Positions 8,741 through 35,114 are shown, counted from the first letter of the stretch. The stretch is 64,000 nucleotides of DNA from Candidatus Kaiserbacteria bacterium RIFCSPHIGHO2_01_FULL_53_29 (GCA_001781125.1 MFKT01000001.1:3630-67629); one strand, 5' to 3'. Numbers and translations: made by a program. The notes: generated by a model not told the origin, from the sequence alone.

Positions 8741-8837
8741 TCCCGTTAGAAACAAACGTATATGAACAACGAAACAAAACATACAGAGAAAGAGACAAGA
8801 ACCACTGCCTCGAAAAAGGCCGGGGTTTCTAATGGGA
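8741..8837 (+). mobile_element. 97-bp MITE-like palindromic element (CCCGTTAGA family) at the rplD start
   Basis: tcccgttagaaac ... gtttctaatggga inverted repeat; the last base is the A of the ATG at 8837. Confidence 0.7.
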
Positions 8838-9517
8838 TGGAATCAGTAATTTACAACGCACAAGGAAAAAAGCAGGGCTCGGTGAAATTACCCGAGAGTA
8901 TTTTCGGCGTCGCGTGGAATGATTCGCTCATGCACCAGGTGGTGACGGGGATGCAGGCCAACGCGCGCTCGATGGTCGCGCATGTGAAAAACCGCGGAGA
9001 AGTGAGAGGCGGCGGCAAAAAGCCGTGGGCCCAAAAAGGAACTGGCCGCGCGCGCCATGGCTCTACGCGTAGTCCGATTTGGAAAGGCGGTGGCGTTACG
9101 CACGGGCCCCGGAAGGACAAAAACTATTCGCAAGCGATCCCGAAAAAGATGCGCGCGAAAGGGCTTTTCATGGCGCTTTCGCGCAAGCTCAAAGACAGCG
9201 AGATCATCTTTGTTGATTCGTTCGGATTGAATGGGCCGAAGACCGCCGCCGCCCAAAAAGTACTCGCGATACTCGGAGGAGTATCGGGCTTTGCAAAACT
9301 TGCCACCAAAAGAAAGAACGCCGCGCTCATAGCGCTTGCCGATCCGACCGAAGCTGCACAAAAGAGTTTCCGCAATATCGGCAACGTCACGTGTGTTGCG
9401 GTGCGCAATTTGAACCCCGTGTCTGTCCTCGGCAATTCCTATCTCATCATCGAAAATCCCGAAGCCGCAGTGGCGATTATTGCGCAGCGCGTTCGGAAGC
9501 CAGTGGCTAAACCCTAG
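8762..9517 (+). CDS. rplD: 50S ribosomal protein L4 (first 25 aa element-derived; conserved start likely 8837)
   Basis: RGEVRGGGKKPWAQKGTGRARHGS. Confidence 0.96.
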   Translation: MNNETKHTEKETRTTASKKAGVSNGMESVIYNAQGKKQGSVKLPESIFGVAWNDSLMHQVVTGMQANARSMVAHVKNRGEVRGGGKKPWAQKGTGRARHGSTRSPIWKGGGVTHGPRKDKNYSQAIPKKMRAKGLFMALSRKLKDSEIIFVDSFGLNGPKTAAAQKVLAILGGVSGFAKLATKRKNAALIALADPTEAAQKSFRNIGNVTCVAVRNLNPVSVLGNSYLIIENPEAAVAIIAQRVRKPVAKP

Positions 9518-9535
9518 TGGCGAACTACTATTCCT

Positions 9536-9892
9536 ATGGCACTATTTTCACGAAATAAGAAAAAAAACAAAATCGAATCGGCTCCGGCTTCTGTTTCGAT
9601 GAAGTCGAATACGCGAGACCTGTCGCACATCCTTCGTCATACCCGCATCACGGAAAAGGCAACCATGCACTCAGCCGATGGCGTCTATACGTTCGACATT
9701 GCCCCAAGTGCCACGAAGCGCGACGTCATGCAGGCGGTGCGGGCACTCTACAAGGTGACCCCGCGGCACGTAGCGGTCGTAAGCATTCCCACGAAGACGA
9801 AACGCAACGCACGAACGGGTAAAAGTGGCGTGAGGGGCGGAGGCAAAAAGGCCTATGTGTACCTTAAAAAAGGCGAGACCATAACGTTCTAA
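9536..9892 (+). CDS. rplW: 50S ribosomal protein L23
   Basis: ITEKA, YTFDI, KKAYVYLKKG; operon position. Confidence 0.95.
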   Translation: MALFSRNKKKNKIESAPASVSMKSNTRDLSHILRHTRITEKATMHSADGVYTFDIAPSATKRDVMQAVRALYKVTPRHVAVVSIPTKTKRNARTGKSGVRGGGKKAYVYLKKGETITF

Positions 9893-9897
9893 ATATG

Positions 9898-10029
9898 CCC
9901 GGCAGGACAATTTCGAATTGCTTCTTATGAATAATCATCAGCGTATGACAGAAAACATCTATCTATCAGATTGCAAAGTATTCGCAGTTGAAACTGCAGC
10001 AGGAATTATTCGAAATTGTACTAGCCGGG
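9898..10029 (+). mobile_element. 132-bp start-codon element, copy 1 (rplW-rplB)
   Basis: cccggcaggacaatttcgaat ... attcgaaattgtactagccggg, flanked by TATG on both sides; mini-ORFs 9895-9930 and 9927-10034. Confidence 0.9.
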
Positions 10030-10030
10030 T

Positions 10031-10873
10031 ATGAAAACATACAAACCAACATCGAAGTCCCAGCGTCAGCACACGAGCATTGAGTACCGCAAGCTTCTTT
10101 CGGGGCACAAGCCGGAGAAATCCCTTATGAAAGGTCGCCGCAGCTTCGGCGGGCGCAACTCATTTGGCCGAATCACGGTGCGCCATCAGGGCGGTGGGCA
10201 CAAGAAGACGTATCGGCAGGTGGATTTCAAATTCAATAAGAAAAATATCCCCGCGAAGGTCACTTCCATCGAGTACGACCCGTTCCGCTCCGGCTTCATC
10301 GGACTTGCCGTATATGCCGACGGGGAGAAGCGCTATTGTCTCGTGCCGCAGAAGGTGAAAGTGGGTGACACATTTCTTGTTTCCGAGAATGCTCCCGTAA
10401 CGCTCGCCAACCGATTGCCGCTGGGGAATATGCCAGTGGGAACATTCGTATACAACATCGAATTGAAGCCGGGCGAGGGCGCTGTCATCGCGCGTTCCGC
10501 GGGGAATTACTGCGAAGTCGTGGCACAAGATGCGGGCTACACGCACATCAAAATGCCCTCGACAGAAATACGCCGCGTCATCTCGACCGCGTGGGCGTCG
10601 GTGGGTGAAGTGTCCAACGAAGAGCATCGCTTGGTGAATCTCGGCAAAGCTGGCCGTAGCCGATGGCTAGGGCGTCGGCCGACTGTTCGCGGTACGGCAA
10701 TGAACCCGGTGGATCACCCGCACGGCGGAGGCGAAGGCAAGCAAGGTCGTGGTTCCCGCCGCCAGAAGACCATGTGGGGCAAACCTTCAGGCAAGGGCCA
10801 AAAGACGAGGCGGCCCAAGAAATATTCCAACGTCTTTATCGTCTCCCGCCGCAAAGTCGGGAAGAGGAAGTAA
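10031..10873 (+). CDS. rplB: 50S ribosomal protein L2
   Basis: GRITVRHQGGG, VRGTAMNPVDHPHGGGEG. Confidence 0.98.
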   Translation: MKTYKPTSKSQRQHTSIEYRKLLSGHKPEKSLMKGRRSFGGRNSFGRITVRHQGGGHKKTYRQVDFKFNKKNIPAKVTSIEYDPFRSGFIGLAVYADGEKRYCLVPQKVKVGDTFLVSENAPVTLANRLPLGNMPVGTFVYNIELKPGEGAVIARSAGNYCEVVAQDAGYTHIKMPSTEIRRVISTAWASVGEVSNEEHRLVNLGKAGRSRWLGRRPTVRGTAMNPVDHPHGGGEGKQGRGSRRQKTMWGKPSGKGQKTRRPKKYSNVFIVSRRKVGKRK

Positions 10874-10893
10874 ATTGTGCTGGCGTTGCGGTA

Positions 10894-10926
10894 TTGACAC
10901 GAATACGCCTGTAGATACAATGTATC
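10894..10926 (+). promoter_or_regulatory. Promoter and operator of mazEF
   Basis: TTGACA-N16-TACAAT-N6-ATG; palindrome gataca-a-tgtatc over the -10. Confidence 0.7.
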
Positions 10927-10927
10927 A

Positions 10928-11176
10928 ATGGCAACAAAAGTCCAAAAATGGGGGAATAGTCTCGCAGTCAGGATCCCCGACAATGTCGTTGAAGATGCCG
11001 GACTTGTTCCAGGAAAAGAAGTAACCGTCAGAAACGTCCGCAATACGGTCGTTATCACTCCGGTGAACGCAAAAAGGCGCCCGACACTCGAAGAACTCGT
11101 CGCTCGCATAACTCCCGAGAATCGGCACGACTATCAGTGGGGGGGAGTCGAGCCCGTTGGGAAGGAAATATGGTGA
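10928..11176 (+). CDS. mazE: AbrB/MazE family antitoxin
   Basis: KVQKWGNSLAVRIP ... TLEELVARITPENRH ... VGKEIW. Confidence 0.93.
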   Translation: MATKVQKWGNSLAVRIPDNVVEDAGLVPGKEVTVRNVRNTVVITPVNAKRRPTLEELVARITPENRHDYQWGGVEPVGKEIW

Positions 11177-11523
11177 AGGAAGGGTCACCACGCTATGTGC
11201 CAAATCGTGGAGATATTATATGGATCCAATTTTCACAGCGCAGAGGGCATGAGCAGGGTGGGCGAAGGCCAGCCATCATTCTTTCCTCGAAACAGTTCAG
11301 CGAACGTACTTCTTTTATATTCTGCTGTCCGATTACTTCAAAGGTGAAAGGATACGTTTTTGAAGTTCCCATAGCGGCCGGCCGAATACGAGGTGCGGTA
11401 CTTGCTGATCAAGCCTACACGTTTGACTGGCAGGCTCGTCGCCCAACATACGCGGCCCGCGCACCCGAAGCGGTCGTATCAAAGGTGGGTGAGTTGATCT
11501 CGATCCTCGCCCAAGGCGCATAG
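11170..11523 (+). CDS. mazF: MazF/PemK endoribonuclease toxin
   Basis: RGDIIW, GHEQGGRRPAIILS, CPITS; overlaps the mazE stop. Confidence 0.93.
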   Translation: MVKEGSPRYVPNRGDIIWIQFSQRRGHEQGGRRPAIILSSKQFSERTSFIFCCPITSKVKGYVFEVPIAAGRIRGAVLADQAYTFDWQARRPTYAARAPEAVVSKVGELISILAQGA

Positions 11524-11558
11524 TCCCACTTTCTAAGCCAAACCTACAGGCAAAAGAT

Positions 11559-11587
11559 TTGACTTATCAAGTCATTTCCTATACATT
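11559..11587 (+). promoter_or_regulatory. Internal promoter upstream of rpsS
   Basis: TTGACT-N17-TACATT followed by hairpin cccgc-gaag-gcggg. Confidence 0.55.
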
Positions 11588-11631
11588 ATGCGGACTCCCG
11601 CGAAGGCGGGTTTAATTTTGACTTGTATTCA

Positions 11632-11666
11632 CTAACACCTAGAACCTAGTCCCTAGCACCTAGTTC
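11632..11666 (+). repeat. 5 x 7-nt CTA-N4 array before rpsS
   Basis: ctaacac ctagaac ctagtcc ctagcac ctagttc at ATG. Confidence 0.85.
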
Positions 11667-11668
11667 AT

Positions 11669-12016
11669 ATGACACGCTCGCTCAAAAAAGGTCCCTACGT
11701 GGACGCGAAGTTGATGAAGAAAGTATCTCTGCGTAAAGCCACGCAGGGGTCTATTAAGACGTGGGCGCGCAGCTCGCAGATCGCACCGGAATTCGTCGGC
11801 TACACGTTTGCGGTGCACAACGGCAAAAGCTTCGAAGAGGTATATGTCTCCGAAGACATGGTCGGGCACCGGTTGGGTGAATTCTCACCGACGACCAAAT
11901 TCATCAAGCACGGCGGAAAGATGCAGAAAGAGACCGAGATGGCGGCCAAGGCCGCGGAAATCGCAGCGGCAACAGCAGCCAAGGCGACTACCACGACGAC
12001 CGCCGCAAAGAAATAA
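11669..12016 (+). CDS. rpsS: 30S ribosomal protein S19 with Ala/Thr C-terminal tail
   Basis: [22 protein letters not shown]. Confidence 0.97.
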
Positions 12017-12022
12017 TCTATG

Positions 12023-12154
12023 CCCGGCAGGACAATTTCGAATTGCTCACTATGAAAACTCACGAAACTACATCAAACGGAATAACCAAAGTGGTTTTAC
12101 TTACGGCCGTTGTTGAAACCTCGCAGGGAATTATTCGAAATTGTACTAGCCGGG
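12023..12154 (+). mobile_element. 132-bp start-codon element, copy 2 (rpsS-rplV)
   Basis: Same terminal repeats, TATG flanks; mini-ORFs 12020-12055 and 12052-12159. Confidence 0.9.
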
Positions 12155-12155
12155 T

Positions 12156-12599
12156 ATGAAAGCCACACTTACCAACTATCATCAGTCGCCGCGCAAGGTG
12201 GGGCTTGTTGCGAGTCTCATTCGCGGCAAGAGTGTTGTTGCTGCGCGCGCCGCATTGCTCTACTTGCCCAAAAAATCCTCGCCCGCGATCGGCAAGCTTC
12301 TGGACAGCGCCATTGCCAACGCCAACCGCGTAGGAGCGACGGCAGAAGATCTTTTTGTAAAGACGATTACGGTCAACAAGGGCGCCATCATGCGCCGGGC
12401 CAGGCCCTTTGCCCGTGGCCGCTCCGGCTCTATTAGGAAGACGATGAGCATTGTGTTCCTCGAACTCGGCCCTATCTCCGCCAAGGCTTCGAAGGGTAAG
12501 CACGCACCGAAAGCAGCGAATGTCAAAACTTCCAAAAAGTCCAACCGCAAGACAGGAAGTTCGAAGAAATCAAAGAAAGAACTAGTCCCTAGCACCTAG
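12156..12599 (+). CDS. rplV: 50S ribosomal protein L22 with Lys-rich tail
   Basis: SPRKVGLVASLIRGK, SAIANA, PFARGR. Confidence 0.96.
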   Translation: MKATLTNYHQSPRKVGLVASLIRGKSVVAARAALLYLPKKSSPAIGKLLDSAIANANRVGATAEDLFVKTITVNKGAIMRRARPFARGRSGSIRKTMSIVFLELGPISAKASKGKHAPKAANVKTSKKSNRKTGSSKKSKKELVPST

Positions 12600-12616
12600 T
12601 CCCTAGCACCTATTTA
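12582..12616 (+). repeat. 5 x 7-nt CTA-N4 array supplying the rplV stop, before rpsC
   Basis: ctagtcc ctagcac ctagtcc ctagcac ctattta t ATG. Confidence 0.85.
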
Positions 12617-12617
12617 T

Positions 12618-13319
12618 ATGACCCACACCGTACATCCATACGCCCACCGCCTCGGCATCATCCGCGACTGGAAATCGCGCTGGTTCTCCAAATCACCGGC
12701 GAAATATCGCGAGAACGTCTGTGTGGATGCCGCCATCCGCCGCTTCCTCAAGAAGCGCTTGCGGGGCAATTACGTTACCTCTGTCGAGATCGAGCGCAAC
12801 GAAAAGGCGATCCGCTGTCTGATCAGGACGTCGCGTCCGGGACTTGTCATCGGTCGTGGCGGGGAAGGCTCGACCAAGCTCACCAAGGAAATCGAGAAGG
12901 TCATCCGCACCGTGCCGCCCGCCAGAGGCGGGTCCTCCTTCGGAGGAAAAGCCTCCCCTCTCTCTGTGCGGCTCGATATCGAAGAGGTTCGCTCGCCGGA
13001 ATCACAATCACCGGTCGTCGCCTACATGGTCGCCGAAGGATTGGAAAAGCGACAGACGTTCCGCCGCGTCCTGAAACAGACGGTGGAGAAAGTGATGGCG
13101 AATCGTGATGTCCAAGGGGTGCGCATCGCCATCGCCGGCCGCCTCGGGGGAGCAGAGATGTCCCGCACCGAAGAGATCAAGCGCGGTCGCGTGCCTCTGC
13201 AGACTCTGCGCGCCGATATCGATTTTGCGCGCGAGACTGCGTATCTCCCGTATGGCGTTATCGGCATCAAAGTCTGGATCTACCGCGGCGACATCTTTGA
13301 TAAAGACGCAAAGAAGTAA
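12618..13319 (+). CDS. rpsC: 30S ribosomal protein S3
   Basis: RLGIIRDWKSRWF, GRVPLQTLRADID, YGVIGIKVWIY. Confidence 0.98.
   Translation: MTHTVHPYAHRLGIIRDWKSRWFSKSPAKYRENVCVDAAIRRFLKKRLRGNYVTSVEIERNEKAIRCLIRTSRPGLVIGRGGEGSTKLTKEIEKVIRTVPPARGGSSFGGKASPLSVRLDIEEVRSPESQSPVVAYMVAEGLEKRQTFRRVLKQTVEKVMANRDVQGVRIAIAGRLGGAEMSRTEEIKRGRVPLQTLRADIDFARETAYLPYGVIGIKVWIYRGDIFDKDAKK
12918..12950 (+). repeat. 33-nt in-frame double-hairpin insertion in rpsC
   Basis: cccgccagaggcggg tcctccttcggagga aaa (PARGGSSFGGK); sister copy at 49670-49702. Confidence 0.75.
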
Positions 13320-13334
13320 TTGCATTTGAATTTA

Positions 13335-13369
13335 CTATTCCCTAGCACCTATTCCCTAAAACCTAACTC
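13335..13369 (+). repeat. 5 x 7-nt CTA-N4 array before rplP
   Basis: ctattcc ctagcac ctattcc ctaaaac ctaactc ttt ATG. Confidence 0.85.
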
Positions 13370-13372
13370 TTT

Positions 13373-13795
13373 ATGTTGGCACCGAAAAAAGCGAAATACC
13401 GCAAATGGCAAACGGGCCGCAGGCGCGGAGCGCGTCTGGTGAAGCCGGAGACCCGGGGCATCACGGTCGCATTTGGCCAATTTGGATTGAAAGCGCTCAC
13501 ACAAGCACGCGTCACGTCCAATCAACTTGAAGCCGCGCGTCGCGCGCTTTCGCGCGCAGGCGGGAAATCCGCCAAGATCTGGACACGCATCTTTCCCGAC
13601 AGGCCGTTCACGCAAAAGGCTGCCGAAGTGGGCATGGGAAGCGGTAAGGGCGATGTCGCGGGTTACGTGTTCGAAGTGCGTCCGGGCCGGATTCTCTTCG
13701 AGATCGATGGCGCACCAGAGCAACAGGCCCGCGAGGCACTCCGCAAAGCTGGCACAAAATTGCCGCTCAAGGCTCGTGTCGTCGGGCGCGATTAG
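13373..13795 (+). CDS. rplP: 50S ribosomal protein L16
   Basis: MLAPKKAKYRK, RIFPDRP, MGSGKG, TKLP. Confidence 0.97.
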   Translation: MLAPKKAKYRKWQTGRRRGARLVKPETRGITVAFGQFGLKALTQARVTSNQLEAARRALSRAGGKSAKIWTRIFPDRPFTQKAAEVGMGSGKGDVAGYVFEVRPGRILFEIDGAPEQQAREALRKAGTKLPLKARVVGRD

Positions 13796-13825
13796 TTCGA
13801 CCACCGCATCACTCTAAATAAATTT

Positions 13826-14014
13826 ATGGATGATTTTTCAAAACAAGACATTGCGGAATTGCAGAAGCTCGTCGCTGACAAGCGCGAAGCATTGCGCGTA
13901 TTCCGATTTGGGGCAGAGGGTAGCCGCTCGCGCAATGTGCGCGAAGGGCGGACATTGCGCAAAGATATCGCACGCTTGCTCACTGAAGTCAGGAAGCGTA
14001 GTATCGCACAATAA
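13826..14014 (+). CDS. rpmC: 50S ribosomal protein L29
   Basis: LRKDIARLLT; operon position. Confidence 0.93.
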   Translation: MDDFSKQDIAELQKLVADKREALRVFRFGAEGSRSRNVREGRTLRKDIARLLTEVRKRSIAQ

Positions 14015-14016
14015 GT

Positions 14017-14292
14017 ATGGACGAAACTGAACAAAATGTTGGTAAAACGTTCGATGGCGTTGTCGTAAAGACGGCGATGAAAGACACGGCAAGCGTGCTG
14101 GTGGAACGCTATGTGAAGCATCCGAAATACAAAAAGTACATGCGCAAGAGTCAGAAGTTCCTCGTGCACGATCCGGGCAATACCGCTCAAGTCGGAGAGG
14201 AAGTTGTCATTCGCGAAACCCGTCCGATCTCCAAGCGCAAGCGCTTCATCCTCGTCTCCCGTATTTCCCCTTCGCTACAAGCTACAAGCTAA
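14017..14292 (+). CDS. rpsQ: 30S ribosomal protein S17
   Basis: GVVV..MKDT, HPKYKK, ETRPISKRKRF. Confidence 0.96.
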   Translation: MDETEQNVGKTFDGVVVKTAMKDTASVLVERYVKHPKYKKYMRKSQKFLVHDPGNTAQVGEEVVIRETRPISKRKRFILVSRISPSLQATS

Positions 14293-14309
14293 CGGCTACA
14301 AGCTTTTTC
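14275..14309 (+). repeat. 7-nt CTACAAG array supplying the rpsQ stop, before rplN
   Basis: ctacaag ctacaag ctaacgg ctacaag ctttttc ttt ATG. Confidence 0.8.
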
Positions 14310-14312
14310 TTT

Positions 14313-14693
14313 ATGATCCAAGACAGAACCCTTGTGAAAATTGCAGACAATTCCGGCGGCATCATCGGCCGGGTCTTCAAGATATTGGGCGGCTCGAAGC
14401 GCCGCTACGCTGGTATCGGCGACGAGATCGTCATCTCCATCCAGACCGCGCAGCCACGCAAATCGGTGAAGAAGAAAGAAGTGCACCGCGCCGTCGTCGT
14501 GCGTCAGACCAAAGCCTTTCGGCGGGCCGACGGCTCATACGTGCGTTTTGATGAAAATGCCGTCGTTCTTATCGCCGGATCGGGCAAAGAGCCCAGGGAG
14601 CCGAAAGCCAATCGTGTCTTCGGTCCTATCCCGCGTGAGGTCGTTGAGCGCGGATATCAGCGCATCGGCTCGCTCGCGCCGGAGATTGTATAA
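14313..14693 (+). CDS. rplN: 50S ribosomal protein L14
   Basis: MIQ...ADNSG, FDENAVV, SLAPEIV. Confidence 0.97.
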   Translation: MIQDRTLVKIADNSGGIIGRVFKILGGSKRRYAGIGDEIVISIQTAQPRKSVKKKEVHRAVVVRQTKAFRRADGSYVRFDENAVVLIAGSGKEPREPKANRVFGPIPREVVERGYQRIGSLAPEIV

Positions 14694-14700
14694 ATGTATG

Positions 14701-14832
14701 CCCGGCAGGACAATTTCGAATTGCCTTATATGAATATTCACCAGCGTATGAAAGAAAAACTAACTAACGGGCTTTGCAAAGTGTTCGCAGTTGAAACTGC
14801 GGCAGGAATTATTCGAAATTGTACTAGCCGGG
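14701..14832 (+). mobile_element. 132-bp start-codon element, copy 3 (rplN-rplX)
   Basis: Same terminal repeats, TATG flanks; mini-ORFs 14698-14733 and 14730-14837. Confidence 0.9.
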
Positions 14833-14833
14833 T

Positions 14834-15145
14834 ATGAAATTGAAAAAAGGAGATAAAGTGCTGGTAATAGCGGGGAAAAATAAGGGTCAAAGCGGTGCCA
14901 TTGTCCGGGTCCTGACGTCCCAAAACAAGGTGCTCCTCGACGGCATCAATCTTGTGAAGCGCCACCGCAAGCCATCCGCACAGAACCGCAAGGGCCAGAT
15001 CGTCGACAAGCCGATGCCCATTCATGCGTCCAATGTAATGCTTGCCGACCCAAAGACAGGGAAGCCGACACGTATCAAGATCGTGCGCGGCAAGGATGGC
15101 GAGCGCCAGCGCGTCGCCGTTAAAAGCGGACAGGAACTGAATTAA
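14834..15145 (+). CDS. rplX: 50S ribosomal protein L24
   Basis: KKGDKVLVIAGKNKG, PIHASNV. Confidence 0.97.
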   Translation: MKLKKGDKVLVIAGKNKGQSGAIVRVLTSQNKVLLDGINLVKRHRKPSAQNRKGQIVDKPMPIHASNVMLADPKTGKPTRIKIVRGKDGERQRVAVKSGQELN

Positions 15146-15146
15146 T

Positions 15147-15686
15147 ATGGCTACTGCAACTCCACAGATGAGAACGTTCGAGGCCCTGAAGAATGAGCTC
15201 GGCTATAAAAATGTCATGCAAGCGCCGCGCGTGCAGAAGATTGTCGTCTCGACCGGCGTCGGCAAGACCAACAAAGACAAGAAGCGCCTTGAGTTGGTGC
15301 GAGACAGACTCTCAAGGATCACCGGACAGGCCGCAGCCCCGCGCGCCGCCAAGAAAGCGATTGCCAATTTCAAGAGCCGCGCGGGAGACACGGTGGGCTA
15401 TCAGGTAACACTTCGAGGTGCTCGGCAGCAGGCATTTCTGAACAAGCTCATCCACATCGTCTTTCCGCGGGGCAAAGACTTCCGCGGCATCAAGCTTTCG
15501 GCGATTGATGAAATGGGCAACATTTCCATCGGGCTCAAAGAGCACACGGTATTTCCCGAGACTTCCGATGAGGATGCCAAAGACATTTTCGGTCTTGCCA
15601 TCACCATCGTGACGAGCGCCAAGAACAAAAAAGAAGCAGAAGCCTTTTTGCGTCACCTCGGTTTGCCTCTCCAGGAGGCGAAATAA
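15147..15686 (+). CDS. rplE: 50S ribosomal protein L5
   Basis: ITGQ...AKKAIANFK, KDFRG, EHTVFPE. Confidence 0.97.
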   Translation: MATATPQMRTFEALKNELGYKNVMQAPRVQKIVVSTGVGKTNKDKKRLELVRDRLSRITGQAAAPRAAKKAIANFKSRAGDTVGYQVTLRGARQQAFLNKLIHIVFPRGKDFRGIKLSAIDEMGNISIGLKEHTVFPETSDEDAKDIFGLAITIVTSAKNKKEAEAFLRHLGLPLQEAK

Positions 15687-16710: not shown

Positions 16711-16714
16711 TTTG

Positions 16715-17566: not shown

Positions 17567-17576
17567 AGAAGATGTT

Positions 17577-17765: not shown

Positions 17766-17767
17766 CC

Positions 17768-21087: not shown

Positions 21088-21684
21088 ATGGAGGCGGTAA
21101 CAGTCAAGCAAGTTGTGGTAATCGCCGGGCCATCCGGATCGGGCAAGAACGTCGTTATCAACGAGATATTGAAGCGGTATCCCAATTGCGCGCGGCTCGT
21201 GACGGCGACAACACGCGCGATGCGTCCCGGTGAGCAGGAAGGCGTCGACTATTATTTTATGTCGCAGGAGCAATTCGATGAGCAATTGAGTGCGGGAAAT
21301 ATCCTCGAACATCGCTTCGTTCCCGCACTCAACACCTACTACGGCACCTACCTGCCTGATCTCGCGAAAAGGATGAGCGAGGGAAAGATCGTTTTCGCAC
21401 AAGTGGACATCGAGGGGGCCAGGCTTCTGAAGAGTCGCTATGGGGCAACGACGATCTTCATCATGCCGGAATCACTCGAACAATTCAGGGCTCGTCTGCA
21501 TGTGCGCAACCCCGAATGGTCAGAGATCGAATTCAAAGCACGTATGAAAGTGACGGAACAAGAATTACATGAACACGCACCGCAGTATGACTATCGTATT
21601 GTGAACGCCGACGGAAAGTTGGAGGACACGCTGCGCGAGGTCGTGGAAATAATGCAGAAAGAAGGCTACAATCTCTCAACATGA
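21088..21684 (+). CDS. gmk: Guanylate kinase
   Basis: GPSGSGK, TTRAMRPGEQEGVDYYF. Confidence 0.93.
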   Translation: MEAVTVKQVVVIAGPSGSGKNVVINEILKRYPNCARLVTATTRAMRPGEQEGVDYYFMSQEQFDEQLSAGNILEHRFVPALNTYYGTYLPDLAKRMSEGKIVFAQVDIEGARLLKSRYGATTIFIMPESLEQFRARLHVRNPEWSEIEFKARMKVTEQELHEHAPQYDYRIVNADGKLEDTLREVVEIMQKEGYNLST

Positions 21685-21685
21685 A

Positions 21686-21782
21686 CCCCGTTAGAAAAAC
21701 GTTTTCAGGAATGTTGGCCAAAATAGTTTCTATGTGCAATACGAACGTTACTTTGATATGACAGATACATTTTCTAATGGGG
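21686..21782 (+). mobile_element. 97-bp CCCGTTAGA-family element at the adk start
   Basis: ccccgttagaaaa ... ttttctaatgggg, flanked by TGAA on both sides; mini-ORF 21681-21761. Confidence 0.8.
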
Positions 21783-22384
21783 TGAAACCCCTTACCGTTT
21801 TATTTTTCGGCTCACAGGGTGCTGGCAAAGGCACGCAGGTAAAGATGCTCATCGATTACCTCCGATCGAGATCGGATCGGGGTGTCGTCCATATCGACAT
21901 GGGCCAGCAACTCCGAAATCTCCGGGATACCGGCACATGGGCGGGGAAACTCACCGGTGAAATTATCGATGCGGGGGTACGCATCTATGATTTTATGGCG
22001 ATTTACCTCCAAACAAAACTGCTTGTGGATAATTTCACCGGCGAGCAGCATATCATCGCCGATGGCCTGGCGCGCGGGGAAGACCAGACACGAGGGTTCG
22101 ACGACATGATGCAATTTTTCAAGCGTGACGATCTTCAGGTCATCAACCTGGTAATTTCCGATGATACGGCAGTGAAGCGCCTCCTTGCGCGCGGCCGCAA
22201 CGACGATACGGAGGAAGCGATACGAAGGCGTCTCGCATGGACAAAAACGGACGTGATACCGCAGCTTGAACTTTTGAAAGGTCGCGGCCGCGCGATCCAC
22301 GAGATCGACGGTGAACCGGATGTCGCGTTGATACACAAGAGTATCCTGAAAGTTCTGGAATTGGCGCCCATAAAGGGGATCTAA
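21758..22384 (+). CDS. adk: Adenylate kinase-family NMP kinase (start ATG 21758 or GTG 21782)
   Basis: GSQGAGKGTQ, RGRNDDTEEAIRRRL; lies between secY and map. Confidence 0.85.
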   Translation: MTDTFSNGVKPLTVLFFGSQGAGKGTQVKMLIDYLRSRSDRGVVHIDMGQQLRNLRDTGTWAGKLTGEIIDAGVRIYDFMAIYLQTKLLVDNFTGEQHIIADGLARGEDQTRGFDDMMQFFKRDDLQVINLVISDDTAVKRLLARGRNDDTEEAIRRRLAWTKTDVIPQLELLKGRGRAIHEIDGEPDVALIHKSILKVLELAPIKGI

Positions 22385-28407: not shown

Positions 28408-28443
28408 TTTCGTTTGCCCCTCAAACGTGATACATTATCGCTC

Positions 28444-29046
28444 ATGGAACATCCGAAAGACGAACGAACGCTGGTCATCATCAAACCCGATGGCGTGCAG
28501 CGCGGGCTCATAGGAGAAATAATAAAACGATATGAGCGCACGGGCCTCAAGATGGTCGCTCTGCGATTTGGCGTCGCGGATGAGAAGAAATTTTGGGAGC
28601 ACTACAACAAAGACGACGCGTGGTTCTTGAAAAAAGGATCGAAAATTGTGGAAGATAAGAAAGCCAACGGCCTGCCTGCGGACAAAGAGCCGCTCGAGTA
28701 CGGCAAAGACATCATCCGGCAGCTCGTGAAATTCATGACAAGCGGCCCGACCATATTTATGGTCTGGGAGGGCAATCAGGCGGTCGCAGTTGTGAAGAAA
28801 TTGACGGGCGACACCGAGCCGGCTACCTCGGATGTGGGAACGATCCGCGGCGATCTCACACTCGACTCGTACACCATCGCGGCGGTGGACGATCGCGCGG
28901 TGCGCAACCTGATCCACTGTTCCGAGAATGTCGACGAAGCGAAACGCGAACTTGCGATTTGGTTTACCGACGCAGAAATCACTGAATACCGTCTCGTCAC
29001 CGAGCAAATTTTGTACGACGTGAACCTTGATGGTATCCTTGAATAA
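28444..29046 (+). CDS. ndk: Nucleoside diphosphate kinase
   Basis: ERTLVIIKPDGVQRGLIGEII, GTIRGD, NLIHCS. Confidence 0.95.
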   Translation: MEHPKDERTLVIIKPDGVQRGLIGEIIKRYERTGLKMVALRFGVADEKKFWEHYNKDDAWFLKKGSKIVEDKKANGLPADKEPLEYGKDIIRQLVKFMTSGPTIFMVWEGNQAVAVVKKLTGDTEPATSDVGTIRGDLTLDSYTIAAVDDRAVRNLIHCSENVDEAKRELAIWFTDAEITEYRLVTEQILYDVNLDGILE

Positions 29047-29092
29047 TTTCCTTCACACTTGCTTCTTTTAGGGCGGTGGTATAATCGGAGAT

Positions 29093-29207
29093 AGCGGTAG
29101 GTATAACACCTGCTGGTGCTATAAAGGGAGCTCGAATCGCTCTACGCTTTGGTGTAGATGCTGAGAGCACCCACCTGGTTTCACCCAGGCTTGCCGTACT
29201 TGCCGCT
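29093..29207 (+). ncRNA. ssrS: Probable compact 6S RNA
   Basis: Own TGgTATAAT promoter and terminator; closing stem agcggtaggtat/gtacttgccgct; GGGAGC...GCACCCACCTG signature as recalled from Firmicutes-type 6S RNAs. Confidence 0.55.
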
Positions 29208-29211
29208 TCCG

Positions 29212-29238
29212 AAAAGTCCTGCGATGAGCAGGACTTTT
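29212..29238. terminator. Intrinsic terminator (bidirectional)
   Basis: aaaagtcctgc-gatga-gcaggactttt. Confidence 0.75.
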
Positions 29239-29256
29239 GGGTGCTAAAATCGTTCG

Positions 29257-30636
29257 ATGGCATCAAAAATCACATTTCATGGCGGTGCGGGGACGGTGAC
29301 GGGAGCGGATTTTCTTTTGGATACCGGTTCTAGCAAAATATTGATCGATTGCGGCGTCTTGCAGCGCGAGCCCCGCTATGAGCGGGGCGAACACGTGTGC
29401 GACACGGCAAATGCTGCCGCCTTCCCATACGATCCGAAAGACATCGATGTACTTGTGGTGACGCACGCGCATGCCGACCACATCGGGCGCATCCCGAAGC
29501 TCGTGCGTGATGGATTTAAGGGTGCAATACATTCGACAGCCGCCACAAAGGACCTCACGGCTCTGATGTTCGACGATGCGCTCAATGTGATGCACGAAGA
29601 GGCGAAGCGTCATGGCTGCCAATTACTGTATGAAAAAGAGGATGTGGAGCGCACGCTTTCACTGTGGCATGTACACGAATACCATGAGGTATTTTCGATA
29701 GGGGACGTATCCGTTGAACTTCTTGATGCGGGACATATCCTGGGCTCGGCGATGATCCGTGTCAAACGCGGTGAGAAAAGCATTATTTTCACCGGCGACC
29801 TCGGCAATTCCCCCGAGCCCCTCTTGCACGACACAGAAGATCCAACGGGCGCGGAGTATCTTGTAATGGAAAGCGTGTATGGTGACCGGCTGCATGAGGG
29901 GCGTAAAGAGCGGCGGGAACACTTACGAGCTTCCGTGGAAGGAACGCGGGCACGAAGGGGCGTTTTGCTCATCCCCTCATTTTCGATCGAACGCACGCAA
30001 GTGCTTCTGTACGAGCTCAATGCAATGATAGAAGAGCGGATCATGCATCCAATCCCCGTCTACCTCGACGCGCCGCTTGCGATACGGGTCACCGACGTGT
30101 TCCGGAAACATTCGAACCTCTTGAATCCGGCAGCACGAGAACATTTTGAGCATGGCGCCGACCCGTTCTCCTTCAAACATCTCACCCTCACACGGCACAC
30201 CGGCGAATCGCAGGCAATCCACAAGGCGCCAAATCCGAAGATCATCATTGCCGGCGCAGGAATGTCCGGGGGCGGCCGCATCCGTGAGCACGAAAAGTAC
30301 TATCTGGGCGACAAACATGCGACTGTTCTTTTCGTCGGCTATCAAGCACCCGGCTCTTTGGGCCGGCACATTCAGGACGGAGCAAAAAAAGTGGAGATCG
30401 ACCGCGGACATATCCGTATCCGTGCACGAATTGAGACACTTTCCGGATACTCCGGCCATGCCGACCGTGATCAGCTGCTCAATTTTGTAGAGAATGCGGG
30501 AGAAGGACTCCGGCGGGTGTTCGTTACAATGGGCGAGCCCAAGGCGTCGCTTTTTCTTGCGCAGCGTATCCGTGATTTTCTCGGAGTGGACACAGTTGTG
30601 CCGGAAGCGGGAGAATTTTTTGATATTGAGTGGTAA
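29257..30636 (+). CDS. MBL-fold beta-CASP ribonuclease
   Basis: THAHADHIG, AGHILGS, MESVYG, SGHAD. Confidence 0.93.
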   Translation: MASKITFHGGAGTVTGADFLLDTGSSKILIDCGVLQREPRYERGEHVCDTANAAAFPYDPKDIDVLVVTHAHADHIGRIPKLVRDGFKGAIHSTAATKDLTALMFDDALNVMHEEAKRHGCQLLYEKEDVERTLSLWHVHEYHEVFSIGDVSVELLDAGHILGSAMIRVKRGEKSIIFTGDLGNSPEPLLHDTEDPTGAEYLVMESVYGDRLHEGRKERREHLRASVEGTRARRGVLLIPSFSIERTQVLLYELNAMIEERIMHPIPVYLDAPLAIRVTDVFRKHSNLLNPAAREHFEHGADPFSFKHLTLTRHTGESQAIHKAPNPKIIIAGAGMSGGGRIREHEKYYLGDKHATVLFVGYQAPGSLGRHIQDGAKKVEIDRGHIRIRARIETLSGYSGHADRDQLLNFVENAGEGLRRVFVTMGEPKASLFLAQRIRDFLGVDTVVPEAGEFFDIEW

Positions 30637-30787
30637 GGGGGTGCTCGACGGATGTTATCTTTTTCCGTCGCTATTCTAGCGGCTGGTGCCGCAGCGCTCG
30701 GTCTCGCCGCCGACGCGGCTGCGAAGCCGGAAAAAGACAACACCCGCACTCGCTTTTACTGGAAAATTCAATGATACAATCTTCTTC

Positions 30788-31471
30788 ATGGGAAAAAGGA
30801 ATCTCCATCCAAACCACACGGCACCACCGCTCAATTTTTGTCGACTGCCCGACGGCTACGGCGTCGTGAAGATCGGCATCTCGGGCGCAGCCGAGACTGG
30901 TGCATGCGGGCTCGATGCATATGAGAAGGCAAAGGAGTTGGGACGTGAGATCGCAAAGCAGGGTAGCATCATCACCACGGGTGCCACGACCGGATTTCCC
31001 ATGTACGCCGCGATGGGCGCGAAGGACGAGTGCGGTTTCTCTATTGGTTTTTCGCCCGCCGCGAACGAACGCGAACATGTCGAGACATACAAACTCCCGC
31101 TTGAATTCATGGATGTCATTGTATATACGGGCTTCGGCTATGCGGGGCGCGATCTGCTCTTTGTGCGCTCCTCCGACGCAATGATTATCGGGTGCGGACG
31201 CATCGGGACCCTCAACGAATTTGCGGTTGCGTTCGAAGATCGCCGCCCCATCGGCATTCTCGAAGGCACATGGGAGACTGATGAGATTCTGCGGCACGTC
31301 ATCAAAGAAGCGCACCGGCCCAACAAAAAGATCGTCTTCGACTCTGATCCCAAGGCACTCGTCGAGAGGCTCATCGAAATGGTAACCAAAGAAAAGGAGA
31401 CGACGATGCTCGTCTACAACAACCATGACAGCCGGAGTGCCTCCGGCAAAAATCAGGAGGTGGTTTTGTAA
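30788..31471 (+). CDS. LOG/SLOG family protein
   Basis: ELGREIA, TGATTG, GRIGTLNEF; TACAAT-N7-ATG. Confidence 0.8.
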   Translation: MGKRNLHPNHTAPPLNFCRLPDGYGVVKIGISGAAETGACGLDAYEKAKELGREIAKQGSIITTGATTGFPMYAAMGAKDECGFSIGFSPAANEREHVETYKLPLEFMDVIVYTGFGYAGRDLLFVRSSDAMIIGCGRIGTLNEFAVAFEDRRPIGILEGTWETDEILRHVIKEAHRPNKKIVFDSDPKALVERLIEMVTKEKETTMLVYNNHDSRSASGKNQEVVL

Positions 31472-31481
31472 ACTTTCCCGT

Positions 31482-31829
31482 CTAGCCGTGGAGCTGTTTC
31501 GTCAGCCGTTCGAACACTGCAGGATGGTCTTTGGCGAGTTCGGAGAGAACCTTGCGGTCGAGGGGGATGTTGGCTTTCTTGAGTGCGCCGATGAATTTGG
31601 AATACGAGAACCCGAGCGGGCGCACGGCGGCATTGATGCGGAGTGTCCAAAGATTGCGAAATTCGCGTTTCTTTGCGCGGCGGTGACGGAACGCATGTGC
31701 GCCGGCATGGCGGATCGCTTCCTTGGCAACCCGCTCCTTGCGCGAACGATCGAAACGATAGCCTTTGGTCTGGGCCAGAATATTCTTGCGCCGCTTATTC
31801 TTTTGTACACCCCGTTTTACTCTCGACAT
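31482..31829 (-). CDS. rplT: 50S ribosomal protein L20
   Basis: MSRVKRG, LWTLRINAA, LDRKVLSELA. Confidence 0.97.
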   Translation of the reverse strand: MSRVKRGVQKNKRRKNILAQTKGYRFDRSRKERVAKEAIRHAGAHAFRHRRAKKREFRNLWTLRINAAVRPLGFSYSKFIGALKKANIPLDRKVLSELAKDHPAVFERLTKQLHG

Positions 31830-31855
31830 AAATTACTTGTAGTGAGCTAGTCGAA

Positions 31856-32038
31856 CTAATTCGGCAAAAACCGACTGCGGTTTTGTGGTGTCATTTGCAT
31901 GCTGCTGGCGCGATTGTTGCGCATCTTCTCGCTGCCGGAGCGCTTGGCATTGAAGTGATTGTGCCCGGGCACCCGCGAAACGATCTTGCCCCGACGCGTT
32001 ACCCGCAGGCGCTTGCTGAATGATTTGTTGGTTTTCAT
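31856..32038 (-). CDS. rpmI: 50S ribosomal protein L35
   Basis: MKTNKSFSKRLRVT..GK; upstream of rplT. Confidence 0.93.
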   Translation of the reverse strand: MKTNKSFSKRLRVTRRGKIVSRVPGHNHFNAKRSGSEKMRNNRASSMQMTPQNRSRFLPN

Positions 32039-32140
32039 GGAAAAACCGCACTTCGGCGGTCAGGGCATTATGCCCGAAAGGGGACAAAAAGCAAATTCGT
32101 GTACGTCCGGTCCCTTTGGCACTCCTCGGCTGATAGATGG

Positions 32141-34204
32141 CTAGCGATAGCGATAGTACGGGAGTTGTGGGTAGTTTGTTCCAAACAAGTAGTTTGAGAA
32201 AGCTCTACCAGCATTGAATCCGCCTAGGATTTGATTTGTCACGAAAGCATCGACGTTGCCTATGTTTGGTGGCAGACTGACACGGTTACCAATCAGTGAA
32301 TCCGGTACCCGGTTTGCGATGGGTACGGGGTCAAGAGTTGAAACTTCCCTGTAGTAGTCGTAGTTGGTGCGGTTTGGCTCTGCGGGTGTCTCTCCGAGCA
32401 GTGGAGAAGATGCCTGTATTCCCGAGGATCCGTCGGGATTTACGAACGTTGCTCTGGGGGCTTCCGCACGACCATCGAAAGAGGGAGGGAGTTGACCATT
32501 ACTATTGCCATTTGTGAAGTTAGAGCTCCCTGAATCGTTCGACTCCGGCGCAAGGCCAAATCCTGGTCTGTTACTAAACTCTTGCGGTGAGAAGTTTTGA
32601 GCGTCTGTTACGTAGCTAGGAAATTCATTGGGTCCGGTCGTCACATACGGATTCAGCGGCAAATTGTCACCCGCGTTCGCGTAGAATAAATCGTTCGGTT
32701 GACCCGACTGAGCGGGCGGCGCCCACGGGGCATCAAAGGGGCCGTAAGTCGAAACGTCACTGTTCGGCCCGAATGTATCAATTCCCGACACCTCCACATC
32801 CCTCCATGAGCTGAGAGTCGTTTGCATACACATGCCGCAACTATTCTCGAAACTACGTTCGGGTTGTGGGGACACTTGGTCAGGAGCAAGTAATTGATTT
32901 TGCGTTTCCGCTCCATCGCTTGAACCGGTCTTGTATATTGTATCGGGATTCTCGAGCATATCCCTACGCGGGTTAGGGCTCTCATTCGCTAGCTCTTGAT
33001 TTTGTGATTGAGCCTCCAAGGAACTTCGATCATTGGTCGGCAGGTCTTCGGTGGGGGGAGGGGTTGGAAGATCCGCCGCATTCTCATTGACCATCAGGAC
33101 TTCGGCTCGTTGGAGTTCATCCATCGATTGAAATTCGGTAGACTGGTCCAGCTGAATACTCTCTAGTCCGGATGTATCGGCTTGGTTGATGCCTAAGTAG
33201 TCCATTGCCCCTTCCCATGCGCTTGCAGTTGTGTCCCGAACTGCATTCCATGTACTTGCAGCAGCATCGCGGATCGAATCTACCCATCCCGACGTCTCTT
33301 GGTTTGACGAATCGAAGCCCCCCGTTTGCTCCTGTGAGAAAGTACTCCCGGAAGAAAACTGCTGCGTCATCGTGTATGCGCCGCTCCTCTTGAAGGCTTC
33401 TTCGGCATCACTTCCGCCGACACCACTACCACTCTGTTCAGCCATGAGGCGCTGGATATTCTCAGGGGCCACACCCTGGGTCGGTTGCGCGTTTTGCGGT
33501 ATCGACGCTTCGTCCTGATAATCCTCTCCTCCATATTCGTCGGCATCGCTTTCAATGTCACTGAATGATCCATTTTCAGGTAGCGGAGCTTTACTCTCCG
33601 AAGAGTCCTTCGCTTCCAAACGTGCGTCGAGTGGCTGGAGTTGGAGGTTGGCTGCACTCTGCTGCAAAGGCCCGGTATCATTCCCCCCTTTACCCGCAGC
33701 ACTCGGAATTTGCGGCGCTCCGGGAGATCCGCTACCTGCCTGTTGTGTACCACCCGGCTTGCTCCCCGGCGGTACGCATTTCCCGTCGAGCAGCTTTGTA
33801 CACTTATTGCTATGCTTCGGACCACCAACACAGCATCCCAAAATGCCGCTCTGACTGTATGCGGCTTCTGTGCATGACGATTCACAATCAGGATCTTTGG
33901 GACACTGCTCGATGCCTTTTGCCGTCTTCTCCCGGCACTTTGGTATTACGCAGTTCCGCCAATTTGTCTCGCACATATTCTTGTCTTTCTCGTTGGGATC
34001 AGTCATACATTTGTTATACGCCTGTTCGCATGCCCCGCCCGAAGTAGCTGCGGCGGCGGCGGCTTGCGCAAGAAACGCAGAGCGGTCGGGTGCAGTGCTG
34101 GTGAATTGTGTCAGACCGAAATTCGCGAGGCCGAGAATTGCCACCAATACGAGCAACGGATGAATAGCGATGTTGTCGCGCAAATTCGGACCCTCTCCAG
34201 GCAT
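32141..34204 (-). CDS. Large secreted protein with N-terminal Cys-rich domain and acidic low-complexity body
   Basis: 687 aa ORF, hydrophobic N-terminus, ten Cys near the N-terminus; CATAAT-N6-ATG. Confidence 0.75.
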   Translation of the reverse strand: MPGEGPNLRDNIAIHPLLVLVAILGLANFGLTQFTSTAPDRSAFLAQAAAAAATSGGACEQAYNKCMTDPNEKDKNMCETNWRNCVIPKCREKTAKGIEQCPKDPDCESSCTEAAYSQSGILGCCVGGPKHSNKCTKLLDGKCVPPGSKPGGTQQAGSGSPGAPQIPSAAGKGGNDTGPLQQSAANLQLQPLDARLEAKDSSESKAPLPENGSFSDIESDADEYGGEDYQDEASIPQNAQPTQGVAPENIQRLMAEQSGSGVGGSDAEEAFKRSGAYTMTQQFSSGSTFSQEQTGGFDSSNQETSGWVDSIRDAAASTWNAVRDTTASAWEGAMDYLGINQADTSGLESIQLDQSTEFQSMDELQRAEVLMVNENAADLPTPPPTEDLPTNDRSSLEAQSQNQELANESPNPRRDMLENPDTIYKTGSSDGAETQNQLLAPDQVSPQPERSFENSCGMCMQTTLSSWRDVEVSGIDTFGPNSDVSTYGPFDAPWAPPAQSGQPNDLFYANAGDNLPLNPYVTTGPNEFPSYVTDAQNFSPQEFSNRPGFGLAPESNDSGSSNFTNGNSNGQLPPSFDGRAEAPRATFVNPDGSSGIQASSPLLGETPAEPNRTNYDYYREVSTLDPVPIANRVPDSLIGNRVSLPPNIGNVDAFVTNQILGGFNAGRAFSNYLFGTNYPQLPYYRYR

Positions 34205-34326
34205 GTCAGCATTATGACAACATTTCTAACTGTCTGATGCCCCCCTGTGTACAAGCTGATGCCCCCGCGCGGTTACGAACATCCGCACGGGAAGCATGTA
34301 TAGAGAGCTCAAGCAAGATCTGGCCA

Positions 34327-34938
34327 CTATGCGTGGTCTTCGGCTGGTGCGACAGGATCAGGCGTTTTCGGCGCCTTCGGCGCGGATGTTTTTTTGGACG
34401 GATCCCGCTCGATCGATACGGAAAGCCCCTTGAGACCCTTTTGGATCGGCTCGGCTATTTTGTAACCCTCGGGAATGACCGCAAGAAAACGCTCGAGGCG
34501 CTCCTTGAGGAAGCCAAACTCCATATACTTGTACCGGCCCCAGAGAAAAAGATCGACGCGCACGCGATGTCCCTCTTTGAGCCAGGCCGCAGCTTTGCCG
34601 GCTTTGATCTGCATGTCACGTTCGCTCGTGCCGATCTTCACCTGTGTCACTTTGGTTTCCGTCACATGCGCTTTTGATTTTATTTCCTTGTCTTTTTTCT
34701 TTTGTTCGTATTTGAATTTGCCATAATCGGTAATTTTGCACACCGGCGGCTGCGCGTTGGGGGATATCTCAATGAGGTCGAGTCCCAACTCTTGTGCCTT
34801 TGCGATAGCTGCGCTTATCGCGAGGATCCCGAAATTTTCCCCCTCTGGCCCAATGACTCGCACCTCCGGCGCGCGAATGCCCTCATTCATCCGTGCGCGA
34901 GTCTTTTCGGCCTGTGATGTGTACTTGGTGAATCCCAT
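34327..34938 (-). CDS. infC: Translation initiation factor IF-3
   Basis: NEGIRAPEVRVI, LDLIEISPNAQPPVCKITDYGKFKYE. Confidence 0.96.
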   Translation of the reverse strand: MGFTKYTSQAEKTRARMNEGIRAPEVRVIGPEGENFGILAISAAIAKAQELGLDLIEISPNAQPPVCKITDYGKFKYEQKKKDKEIKSKAHVTETKVTQVKIGTSERDMQIKAGKAAAWLKEGHRVRVDLFLWGRYKYMEFGFLKERLERFLAVIPEGYKIAEPIQKGLKGLSVSIERDPSKKTSAPKAPKTPDPVAPAEDHA

Positions 34939-35059
34939 CCCGTTAGAGGTAGGAAGCTTGCGCTTCCGACGCGAGTATAAACTTTTGTGAGTAGAGTTTC
35001 ATCTGTTGCAAATGTATCATCCGCATACTACTACGAAACTTCCGTAACCTCTAACGGGA
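34938..35059 (-). mobile_element. 122-bp CCCGTTAGA-family element at the infC start
   Basis: Perfect 13-bp inverted repeat tcccgttagaggt/acctctaacggga; TGGG (minus strand) duplicated; mini-ORFs 35064-35017 and 35020-34943. Confidence 0.8.
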
Positions 35060-35114
35060 CCCATTTGTTAGGGGGACTATAGCACGAGATAGGGGCCCGA
35101 TACAATTGTTTGCA

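Follow-up and report, generated by a model that had tools for sequence, protein, structure and literature searches.

Elements at the starts of rplD, adk, and infC

The analyzed window, 64,000 nucleotides of Candidatus Kaiserbacteria bacterium RIFCSPHIGHO2_01_FULL_53_29 (MFKT01000001.1:3630-67629), contains three short elements with terminal inverted repeats (TIRs) situated exactly at the start codons of rplD, adk, and infC (Table 1). The genome comprises 1.11 Mb in 29 contigs, with a G+C content of 53.5% and a listed completeness of 100%. Genes are assigned by profile matches: rplD by TIGR03953, infC by TIGR00168, the gmk-like gene upstream of adk by PF00625, and the adk-like gene by PF00406, the latter scoring under the NCBIfam adk cut-offs. 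The TIRs are 13 bp long, perfect at infC and with one G.T mismatch each at rplD and adk. Duplications of 4 bp are seen at adk (TGAA) and infC (TGGG), and the terminal purine of the element regenerates the start codon, as GTG and ATG, respectively. Comparison of the flanks at rplD reveals no 4-bp duplication.

Table 1. Features of the window and related copies elsewhere (window positions counted from its first letter)
Feature	Position	Strand	Remarks
Element at rplD	8741..8837	+	97 bp; terminal base is the A of the rplD ATG (8837)
Left flank CCTG at rplD	8737..8740	+	stands in for a duplication
In-frame N-terminal extension of L4	8762..8836	+	25 codons with internal ATG; ends in S-N-G
Element at adk	21686..21782	+	97 bp; terminal base creates GTG (21782)
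Original adk ATG	21681..21685	+	overlaps gmk stop; left TGAA copy at 21682-21685
TGAA duplication, right copy	21783..21786	+	
26-codon ORF from original adk ATG	21681..21761	+	TGA overlaps ATG 21758
Element at infC	34938..35059	-	122 bp; terminal base is the A of the infC ATG (34938)
Original infC ATG (35064-35062)	35060..35064	-	left TGGG copy at 35063-35060
TGGG duplication, right copy	34934..34937	-	
15-codon and 25-codon ORFs at infC	34943..35064	-	from 35064 and from 35020; joined by ATGA overlap
Nuclease-coding copy	C9:113107-113383		277 bp; same TIRs; TGAA duplication
Sister-family copies in the window	9898-10029, 12023-12154, 14701-14832, 52732-52864		
Sister-family copy of 303 bp	G000 (this genome) C25:7496-7798		carries a GIY-YIG paralogue
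Distant GIY-YIG clades in congeners	L428, L431, L432, L433, L434, L436		other TIRs; judged by eye

An earlier sequence-only reading of the window had given coordinates, lengths, and strands of the three elements, all of which prove exact. It had also described the 13-bp TIRs, both duplications and the lack of one at rplD, the regeneration of starts by the terminal purine, the overlap of the gmk stop with ATG 21681, and the position of ATG 21758 in the adk frame; these are reproduced here, with the mismatches mentioned above, and its gene names agree with the profile matches. The open reading frames (ORFs) of 26, 15, and 25 codons and the 25-codon extension of rplD ending in SNG translate as described. 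ATG 21758 adds eight codons to the adk translation, and the internal ATG of the rplD element is likely the start in use. The 25-codon ORF at infC terminates at a TAA 4 nt before the gene; this codon is indeed present, but it is not special to infC, because it is part of the right TIR and occurs in nearly every copy.

Contigs of runs X5, X6, and X8, which are not flagged as a possible source of the genome, span the adk copy, and one X8 contig spans the rplD copy, with zero differing letters in each case; an assembly artefact is thereby ruled out for these two genes. Among the joints listed, none skips the rplD or the adk element, although contigs drop rare variants. The ACCTG flank and the end variant TCTAATGGG recur at rplD of genomes G093 and G057 and at other loci; since the flank recurs in other genomes, simple erosion of a duplication at rplD is ruled out.

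A nuclease-coding copy

Among the copies in this genome, one of 277 bp has the same TIRs and codes for a protein. Its ORF (C9:113102-113386) begins at the ATG of the host gene, runs through both TIRs, and ends at a TGA that overlaps the rebuilt ATG, so that the stop is derived from the target. The product has 94 residues and a single GIY-YIG domain, its sole Pfam match (GIY-YIG, E 3e-17). Residues Y11, Y13, Y24, G26, R34, H38, and E70, which we take to be catalytic, are invariant among 44 aligned sequences. The structure model has a pLDDT of 89.5, with UPF0213 and Slx1 as top fold matches; the best sequence match is also UPF0213 (BH0048, PDB 1zg2; E 2.5e-5), and a search of the ESM Atlas returned generic GIY-YIG clusters only.

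The association of the nuclease with the TIRs is seen from both sides. Of the best 80 of 376 GTDB relatives, 77 lie off contig edges, and in 73 of these 77 loci both TIRs are located at the gene ends; an exact duplication is present in 43 of the 73, the stop falls on a target-derived TRA in 58, and a host start is in frame in 34. As the full-length query includes TIR-coded residues, the search of the genus was repeated with the core only. It yields hits of at least 69% identity in 16 relatives, and all 14 that were examined are 277-bp elements with these TIRs; they lie at 11 different genes, and in each the frame opens at the host's ATG or GTG and closes at an overlapping TGA. Conversely, when metagenome TIR pairs 255–310 bp apart are collected by their DNA (80 read of at least 121 found, one duplicate among them), 50 of the 80 enclose a GIY-YIG gene. 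The sequence comparisons show purifying selection on the nuclease: in 13 of 14 pairs the proportion of synonymous differences (pS) is 0.52–0.91 versus 0.06–0.23 for nonsynonymous ones (pN), the ORF of the fourteenth pair being mis-extracted.

In the genus, all 16 genomes with a close nuclease have 4–57 short copies, while a close nuclease is found in none of the 38 genomes that lack them, although kin are not independent in either count. Seven more distant nuclease hits lack this TIR and, as judged by eye, have other inverted repeats. The closest relatives of the element come mostly from Patescibacteria records; other record titles (Omnitrophota, Planctomycetes, deltaproteobacteria, Bacillota, Woesearchaeota) might reflect binning errors. 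Viral contigs contribute 15 matches. The nuclease tree, based on 85 columns only, is poorly resolved.

The family in the genome and genus

The half-site CCC[GA]TTAGA occurs 100 times in the genome, and the half-sites pair into 49 elements of 29–277 bp (three via a relaxed partner, one nested); apart from the nuclease-coding copy, their span is 29–131 bp. A genome-wide search gives 45 pairs, versus 0 for the pattern read backwards; the paired pattern is beyond chance. It is present in 78/116 genomes of the genus and in 34/251 of the phylum. A 4-bp duplication within one mismatch flanks 36 of 48 non-nested copies, and TIR positions 11–13 agree between the arms in 316 of 392 elements. In this genome, 27 copies have a rebuilt ATG or GTG followed by at least 80 codons. 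A Pfam match is found for 16 of 22 rebuilt-start genes outside the window-type check, with varied functions; for RpiB, TatD, and an epimerase, the profile starts at most five residues from the rebuilt start.

The interiors are diverse: five small clusters hold 18 of the 49 copies, and 31 are singletons. The infC element belongs to a subfamily of about 120 bp with six copies in the genome. Conserved internal mini-hairpins, GGAAGC-GCAA-GCTTCC and GCCC-GAA-GGGC, are found in the infC-type subfamily and in a 65–68-bp subfamily; the loops are of a type known from very stable hairpins of RNA or single-stranded DNA. There is no common length-modulo-3 rule over the start-site copies, some subfamilies alone keeping one. 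In a nested case (C21:6838-6968), a 59-bp element with a CAAG duplication lies inside a 131-bp element close to where a very long ORF starts, and the frame is kept by both.

[quoted passage not shown] The MITE-like character claimed in the sequence-only reading is borne out, along with the start-codon preference and the preservation of translation, whereas the independence of this family is not, given its relation to a sister family (see below). The nuclease copy, the recurring CCTG flank, and the copies at -35 boxes, in frame within genes, and nested are additions to that reading.

Empty sites and patchy occurrence in relatives

A comparison with relatives, suggested in the same reading, shows mostly empty sites at all three genes. 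At adk, the element is absent from all 28 informative loci (a 29th lacks the gene start), and relatives with an upstream gmk begin adk at the position matching ATG 21681; at infC, 26 of 29 loci are empty, and at rplD the TIR family is missing from 27 of 29. Hence, the three elements are insertions at an orthologous start codon. The same N-terminal extension without the inverted repeat is not seen among the rplD, adk, and infC loci of the relatives, although a few have other L4 N-terminal extensions. At rplD of G056, a different inverted repeat, CCCCACTTTC...GAAAGTGGGG, sits on the start and also provides an in-frame extension.

Interiors of the infC and rplD types turned up at infC and rplD only, and the five full-length matches of the infC element with E <1e-13 are all at infC. 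The approximately unbiased (AU) test rejects a clade of the six infC carriers (p 5e-6) and of the three rplD carriers of the ACCTG type (p 0.003). The rplD element is present in G093 and cleanly absent from the closely related sister G001, and the elements of G011 and G059 are 97% identical, with infC four-fold sites identical at 50 of 78 positions. The interiors are 61–76% identical, as measured on gapped alignments in which the background is close to 50%, and the gene trees are poorly resolved.

Target sites

For the analysis of targets, the elements were removed in silico, and 1025 genes were called by a home-made hexamer model blind to the elements. Called starts account for 18 of 36 insertion sites and for 17 of 22 ATGRR sites. 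In the background, 403 of 1748 tolerated ATGRR sites (starts and intergenic) are called starts; the number expected among 22 is 5.8 with matching by 5-mer and AT, and 8.3 if only gene-near intergenic sites are used (p 1.5e-4). Two of the five ATGRR misses are probably missed gene calls, as they lead into long ORFs with Pfam matches. The start-codon preference postulated in the sequence-only reading is supported. Leaderless starts are not preferred: a -10 box lies just upstream in 5/18 cases versus 335/1020 called starts. The latter proportion suggests many leaderless mRNAs in this genome; its start regions show no Shine-Dalgarno-like bias and a T/A/T pattern at about -12 to -7.

The second class of targets is the -35 box, with TTGA duplicated within TTGAC. 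A -10 box is located 16–18 nt downstream at 13 of 18 non-redundant TTGAC sites (all loci, 21 rows minus three redundant), compared to 77 of 297 intergenic TTGAC sites, the background being this genome only. Four copies lie within long ORFs, all in frame (length + 4 divisible by 3). At starts, the orientation follows that of the host gene, with 23 versus 1 for nuclease copies and 43 versus 0 for short copies with the polar end motif; at non-start targets either orientation is found.

The commonest flank pair of elements without a duplication is TAAA with TGAA, and the rplD flank is of such a kind. Such flanks could arise if a flank is carried along from the donor, if the element has replaced an older one, or if the two ends are joined in separate events. 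That all duplications are donor-carried flanks is ruled out by the exact duplication of rare 4-mers (TGTA, TGCT, TATG, TGCG, TGGG).

Reading frames and hairpins

The right end, TCTAACGGGR, together with a TGA target resolves all three frames at the rebuilt start, yielding an S-N-G fusion, an L-T-G terminus with the TGA overlapping the start, or a TAA 4 nt upstream. The original start leads directly to the rebuilt one in 12 of 21 copies (5.5 in shuffles, 7 when flipped), and in 17 of 21 if one relay is allowed (7.5 and 8, respectively). Of 26 copies, 18 have an internal in-frame ATG (5.5 in shuffles, 1 when flipped) and 25 have some route. In congeners, a route is found for 47 of 60 start-site copies (shuffles 23.7, maximum 38; flipped 21), in a sample that is enriched in one subfamily, includes orthologous copies, and is drawn from partly hand-picked regions. 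Here as well as in congeners, open frames span the elements far more often than in shuffled controls, in agreement with the preservation of translation proposed earlier; they may reflect design or selection after insertion. By analogy with mycobacterial MIRUs, ribosomes may cross the elements by reinitiation or relay.

Predicted folds have energies of -25 to -51 kcal/mol, calculated with no shuffle control, and bury the rebuilt start in the stem. Where copies are orthologous, the pairing of the stems is retained, and infC shows a compensatory change. On the sense strand, the G.T variant corresponds to G-U pairing in 13 of 14 cases.

Proposed mechanism and its alternatives

Taken together, the insertion at orthologous starts, the rebuilt ATG or GTG, the frame-resolving right end, and the host-derived start and stop of the full-length copy point, at the sequence level, to the short elements being gene-less derivatives of the 277-bp element with nuclease-driven mobility, an interpretation we consider probable. 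In this scheme, the 94-residue GIY-YIG nuclease would mobilize the elements by recognizing the CCCGTTAGA...TCTAACGGG ends, acting in trans on the short copies. By analogy with Slx1, which it resembles in fold, and with Ssn, which makes single-strand cuts next to hairpins, it would cut at or near the base of branched DNA or of a hairpin. Insertion, with the joining completed by host repair, would duplicate 4 bp directly after the first base of start codons, and also at -35 boxes. The copies probably survive since their ends rebuild the start and the short open frame passes ribosomes on: ribosomes from the original or an internal ATG would unwind the 13-bp stem, and then reinitiate or read through. 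Selection after insertion would preserve both the open frames and the pairing of the stem and leave the interior to drift.

Several observations weigh against this mechanism. The GIY-YIG domain is hydrolytic and has no known DNA-joining activity. There are 14 Y1_Tnp matches in the genome, 12 of them over the Pfam cut-off, and three matches to the rve integrase core; and outside this genome the TIR pairs covered were spaced up to 310 bp. The interiors of the three window copies have no BLAST similarity to the nuclease gene, the ends alone being shared. Many copy-rich congeners have no close nuclease hit, e.g., G071 with 30 copies and G084 with 29, which could be due to incomplete assemblies or extinct parents. 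By the applied rules, no translation route is found in 13 of the 60 congener start-site copies. At one and the same gene, homologous interiors are found in lineages that together are not a clade. Finally, an exact duplication is missing in 168 of 363 elements, both flanks then reading outward as target-like 4-mers; such elements are not explained by simple cut-and-paste.

The short elements might instead be ordinary MITEs or REP-like repeats (repetitive extragenic palindromes) moved by a Y1/RAYT HUH or an integrase-core enzyme, with the GIY-YIG gene as mere cargo. The Y1_Tnp and rve matches could supply such an enzyme, and TIR pairs can hold unrelated sequence, such as a whole tRNA-Thr gene in G057. 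However, none of the 17 Y1_Tnp and rve genes in this genome is enclosed by these TIRs, and DDE_Tnp_1 has zero matches in it; moreover, the nuclease ORF traverses both TIRs with no stop of its own, the TIR type shifts with the nuclease clade, and HUH insertion sequences insert without a target duplication, all of which makes a foreign mobilizer improbable. Even further from our expectation is that the elements are domesticated RNA hairpins that regulate downstream translation and are no longer mobile. The conserved stems with the compensatory change at infC, the sense-strand G-U pairs, and the buried starts would fit this; yet most relatives lack the element at all three genes, the target genes have no function in common, and strand-biased C-to-T mutation would also give the G.T bias.

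Two further explanations keep the nuclease and concern single steps. One, a serious contender though not the one we favor, contests only the targeting: the nuclease would prefer the motif R^YNRR without any active aiming, and survival bias would do the rest, as out-of-frame copies in genes die, intergenic ones are deleted, and those at starts are locked in. It agrees with the in-frame intragenic, nested, and other non-start copies and with the persistence of old, diverged copies at infC and rplD, and it gains from the home-made gene calls and from an intergenic pool that may overstate tolerance. Against it, the enrichment at starts holds after motif and AT matching; nuclease copies that are intact and flanked by perfect duplications, and are presumably young, likewise sit at starts, with 39 of 44 RTG sites of nuclease copies leading into ORFs of at least 80 codons and all 14 close relatives at starts; and lock-in leaves the -35 class unexplained. 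The other, which is rather unlikely and would be an addition compatible with the nuclease-driven mechanism, is a locus-by-locus lateral spread at infC and rplD by homing-like gene conversion after DNA uptake, with the nuclease cutting the empty start, in place of fresh transposition or of ancient insertion with precise losses. The infC-only matches, the AU tests, the empty sister of G093, and the near-identity of the G011 and G059 elements in diverged genes all favor it. Nevertheless, ancient insertion followed by precise excision between direct repeats yields the same patchiness, the interior identities have a high background and the trees are poorly resolved, and the target is only 5 bp, in contrast to the long sites of homing endonucleases.

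Comparison with known systems

The family works like a MITE with MIRU-like insertion at start codons, tied to a minimal GIY-YIG element. A literature search found no description of it, most subscription journals being outside the reach of that search. MIRUs (mycobacterial interspersed repetitive units) occur as tandem arrays, and we know of no mobilizer for them. In the accessible part of one source, they are presented as short repeats, called mobile, that insert at start codons, have an internal ORF coupled at -4 nt, and little affect expression (PMC12548453). Start-codon insertion and an internal ORF are shared by the elements analyzed here, with the frames observed and their coupling presumed. 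The 13-bp TIRs, the nuclease-coding partner, the variable interiors, the three translation routes, and the -35 targets set them apart from MIRUs, which were compared by description only; the host, too, is not mycobacterial, with its 1.1-Mb genome and with relatives of the element mostly in Patescibacteria.

Ssn (cd10448) is likewise a single-domain GIY-YIG protein of about 94 residues flanked by multicopy repeats, and the arrangement NTS-ssnA-NTS is likened by its authors to an insertion sequence, according to the accessible part of the paper (PMC11893778, Chenal et al. 2025). Here, unlike in Ssn/NTS, a single TIR pair supplies both repeats as its arms, the ORF overlaps them, and there is a 4-bp duplication. 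The SRM consensus is found in 0/49 elements and 0/73 nuclease loci, with three matches in the whole genome, and no GIY-YIG ORF was recovered from 14 NTS-flanked viral loci. The main text of PMC11893778, as far as accessible, contains neither "start codon" nor "target site".

In common with bacterial MITEs and their parent insertion sequences, as outlined in the accessible text of a review (PMC10969869), the copies are short, non-coding, numerous, bounded by TIRs, and flanked by a duplication, and have a longer coding partner. In contrast to MITE parents, this partner has 277 bp and a GIY-YIG nuclease rather than a DDE transposase, and the interiors are mostly unrelated; "GIY-YIG" and "start codon" do not occur in that text. 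The Rickettsia palindromic elements treated there are palindromic and in frame in coding genes, similar to the four intragenic copies here, which are a minority with peptides that are not conserved. Inverted-repeat-replacing transposition of IS1272, which, by the accessible text, inserts without target duplication (PMC5678879), might be a model for the duplication-less copies, although IS1272 has a conventional transposase gene and most copies here have a duplication. In genes for rRNA of the candidate phyla radiation (CPR), GIY-YIG genes are reported from non-intron insertions, again in the accessible part of the source (PMC11270868).

Known insertion sequences, Ssn/NTS as judged by its SRM hairpins, REP/RAYT systems, and homing endonucleases do not accommodate the family. 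The Pfam match and the fold of the ORF are GIY-YIG alone, so no known transposase class of a canonical insertion sequence is represented, and none of the 14 Y1_Tnp matches is within these TIRs, as would be expected of a REP/RAYT system. The nuclease, a single 94-residue domain with a TIGR01453 score of 20.5 bits (cut-off 56), has neither the extra DNA-binding domain nor the one long fixed site of a GIY-YIG homing endonuclease. UPF0213 (BH0048) and Slx1, its best matches, are cellular proteins, to our knowledge not known as cargo of TIR elements. The chances are about even that the family is a novel class of transposon in prokaryotes: about 280 bp in length, with a lone GIY-YIG nuclease as transposase, with clades having their own TIRs, aimed at start codons and -35 boxes, borrowing start and stop from the host, and with thousands of short derivatives that rewrite starts and N-termini of essential genes in Patescibacteria.

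If the 94-residue nuclease indeed moves the elements, it would be a new enzyme class among transposase chemistries, and the element would be unusually small for an autonomous one. Elements that occupy the starts of essential genes and do not kill them show how mobile DNA persists in gene-dense genomes. They also account for unusual N-terminal extensions that end in SNG and for small ORFs with a terminal LTG, an annotation trap in Patescibacteria genomes.

Sister family and related loci

Another start-codon family, whose inverted repeat is one of the other types seen with the more distant nucleases, has the TIR CCCGGCAGGACAATTTCGAAT, a length of about 132 bp, TATG-type duplications, and about 26 copies in the genome, four of them in the window. 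The GIY-YIG protein of its 303-bp copy is 47% identical to the nuclease of the 277-bp element; as each family has its own paralogous nuclease, the two are sisters. In total, the genome has five further GIY-YIG paralogues besides that of the 277-bp copy, the C25 one bearing the sister TIR.

Most of the Y1_Tnp matches lie in ORFs of 217–272 codons, at 14 places of the 1.1-Mb genome. In G139 and G166, the element ends make dense nested arrays of 26–55-bp hairpins instead of single elements. The TIR pair of G057 (C10; L388:93-184) surrounds tRNA-Thr(TGT), the acceptor stem of which continues the inverted repeat. Two small GIY-YIG genes, C27:3281-3508 (L009) and C9:465-668 (L010), each have, as judged by eye, the 5' fragment of a tRNA on one side and a tRNA gene on the other, which suggests that they are tRNA-targeting relatives.

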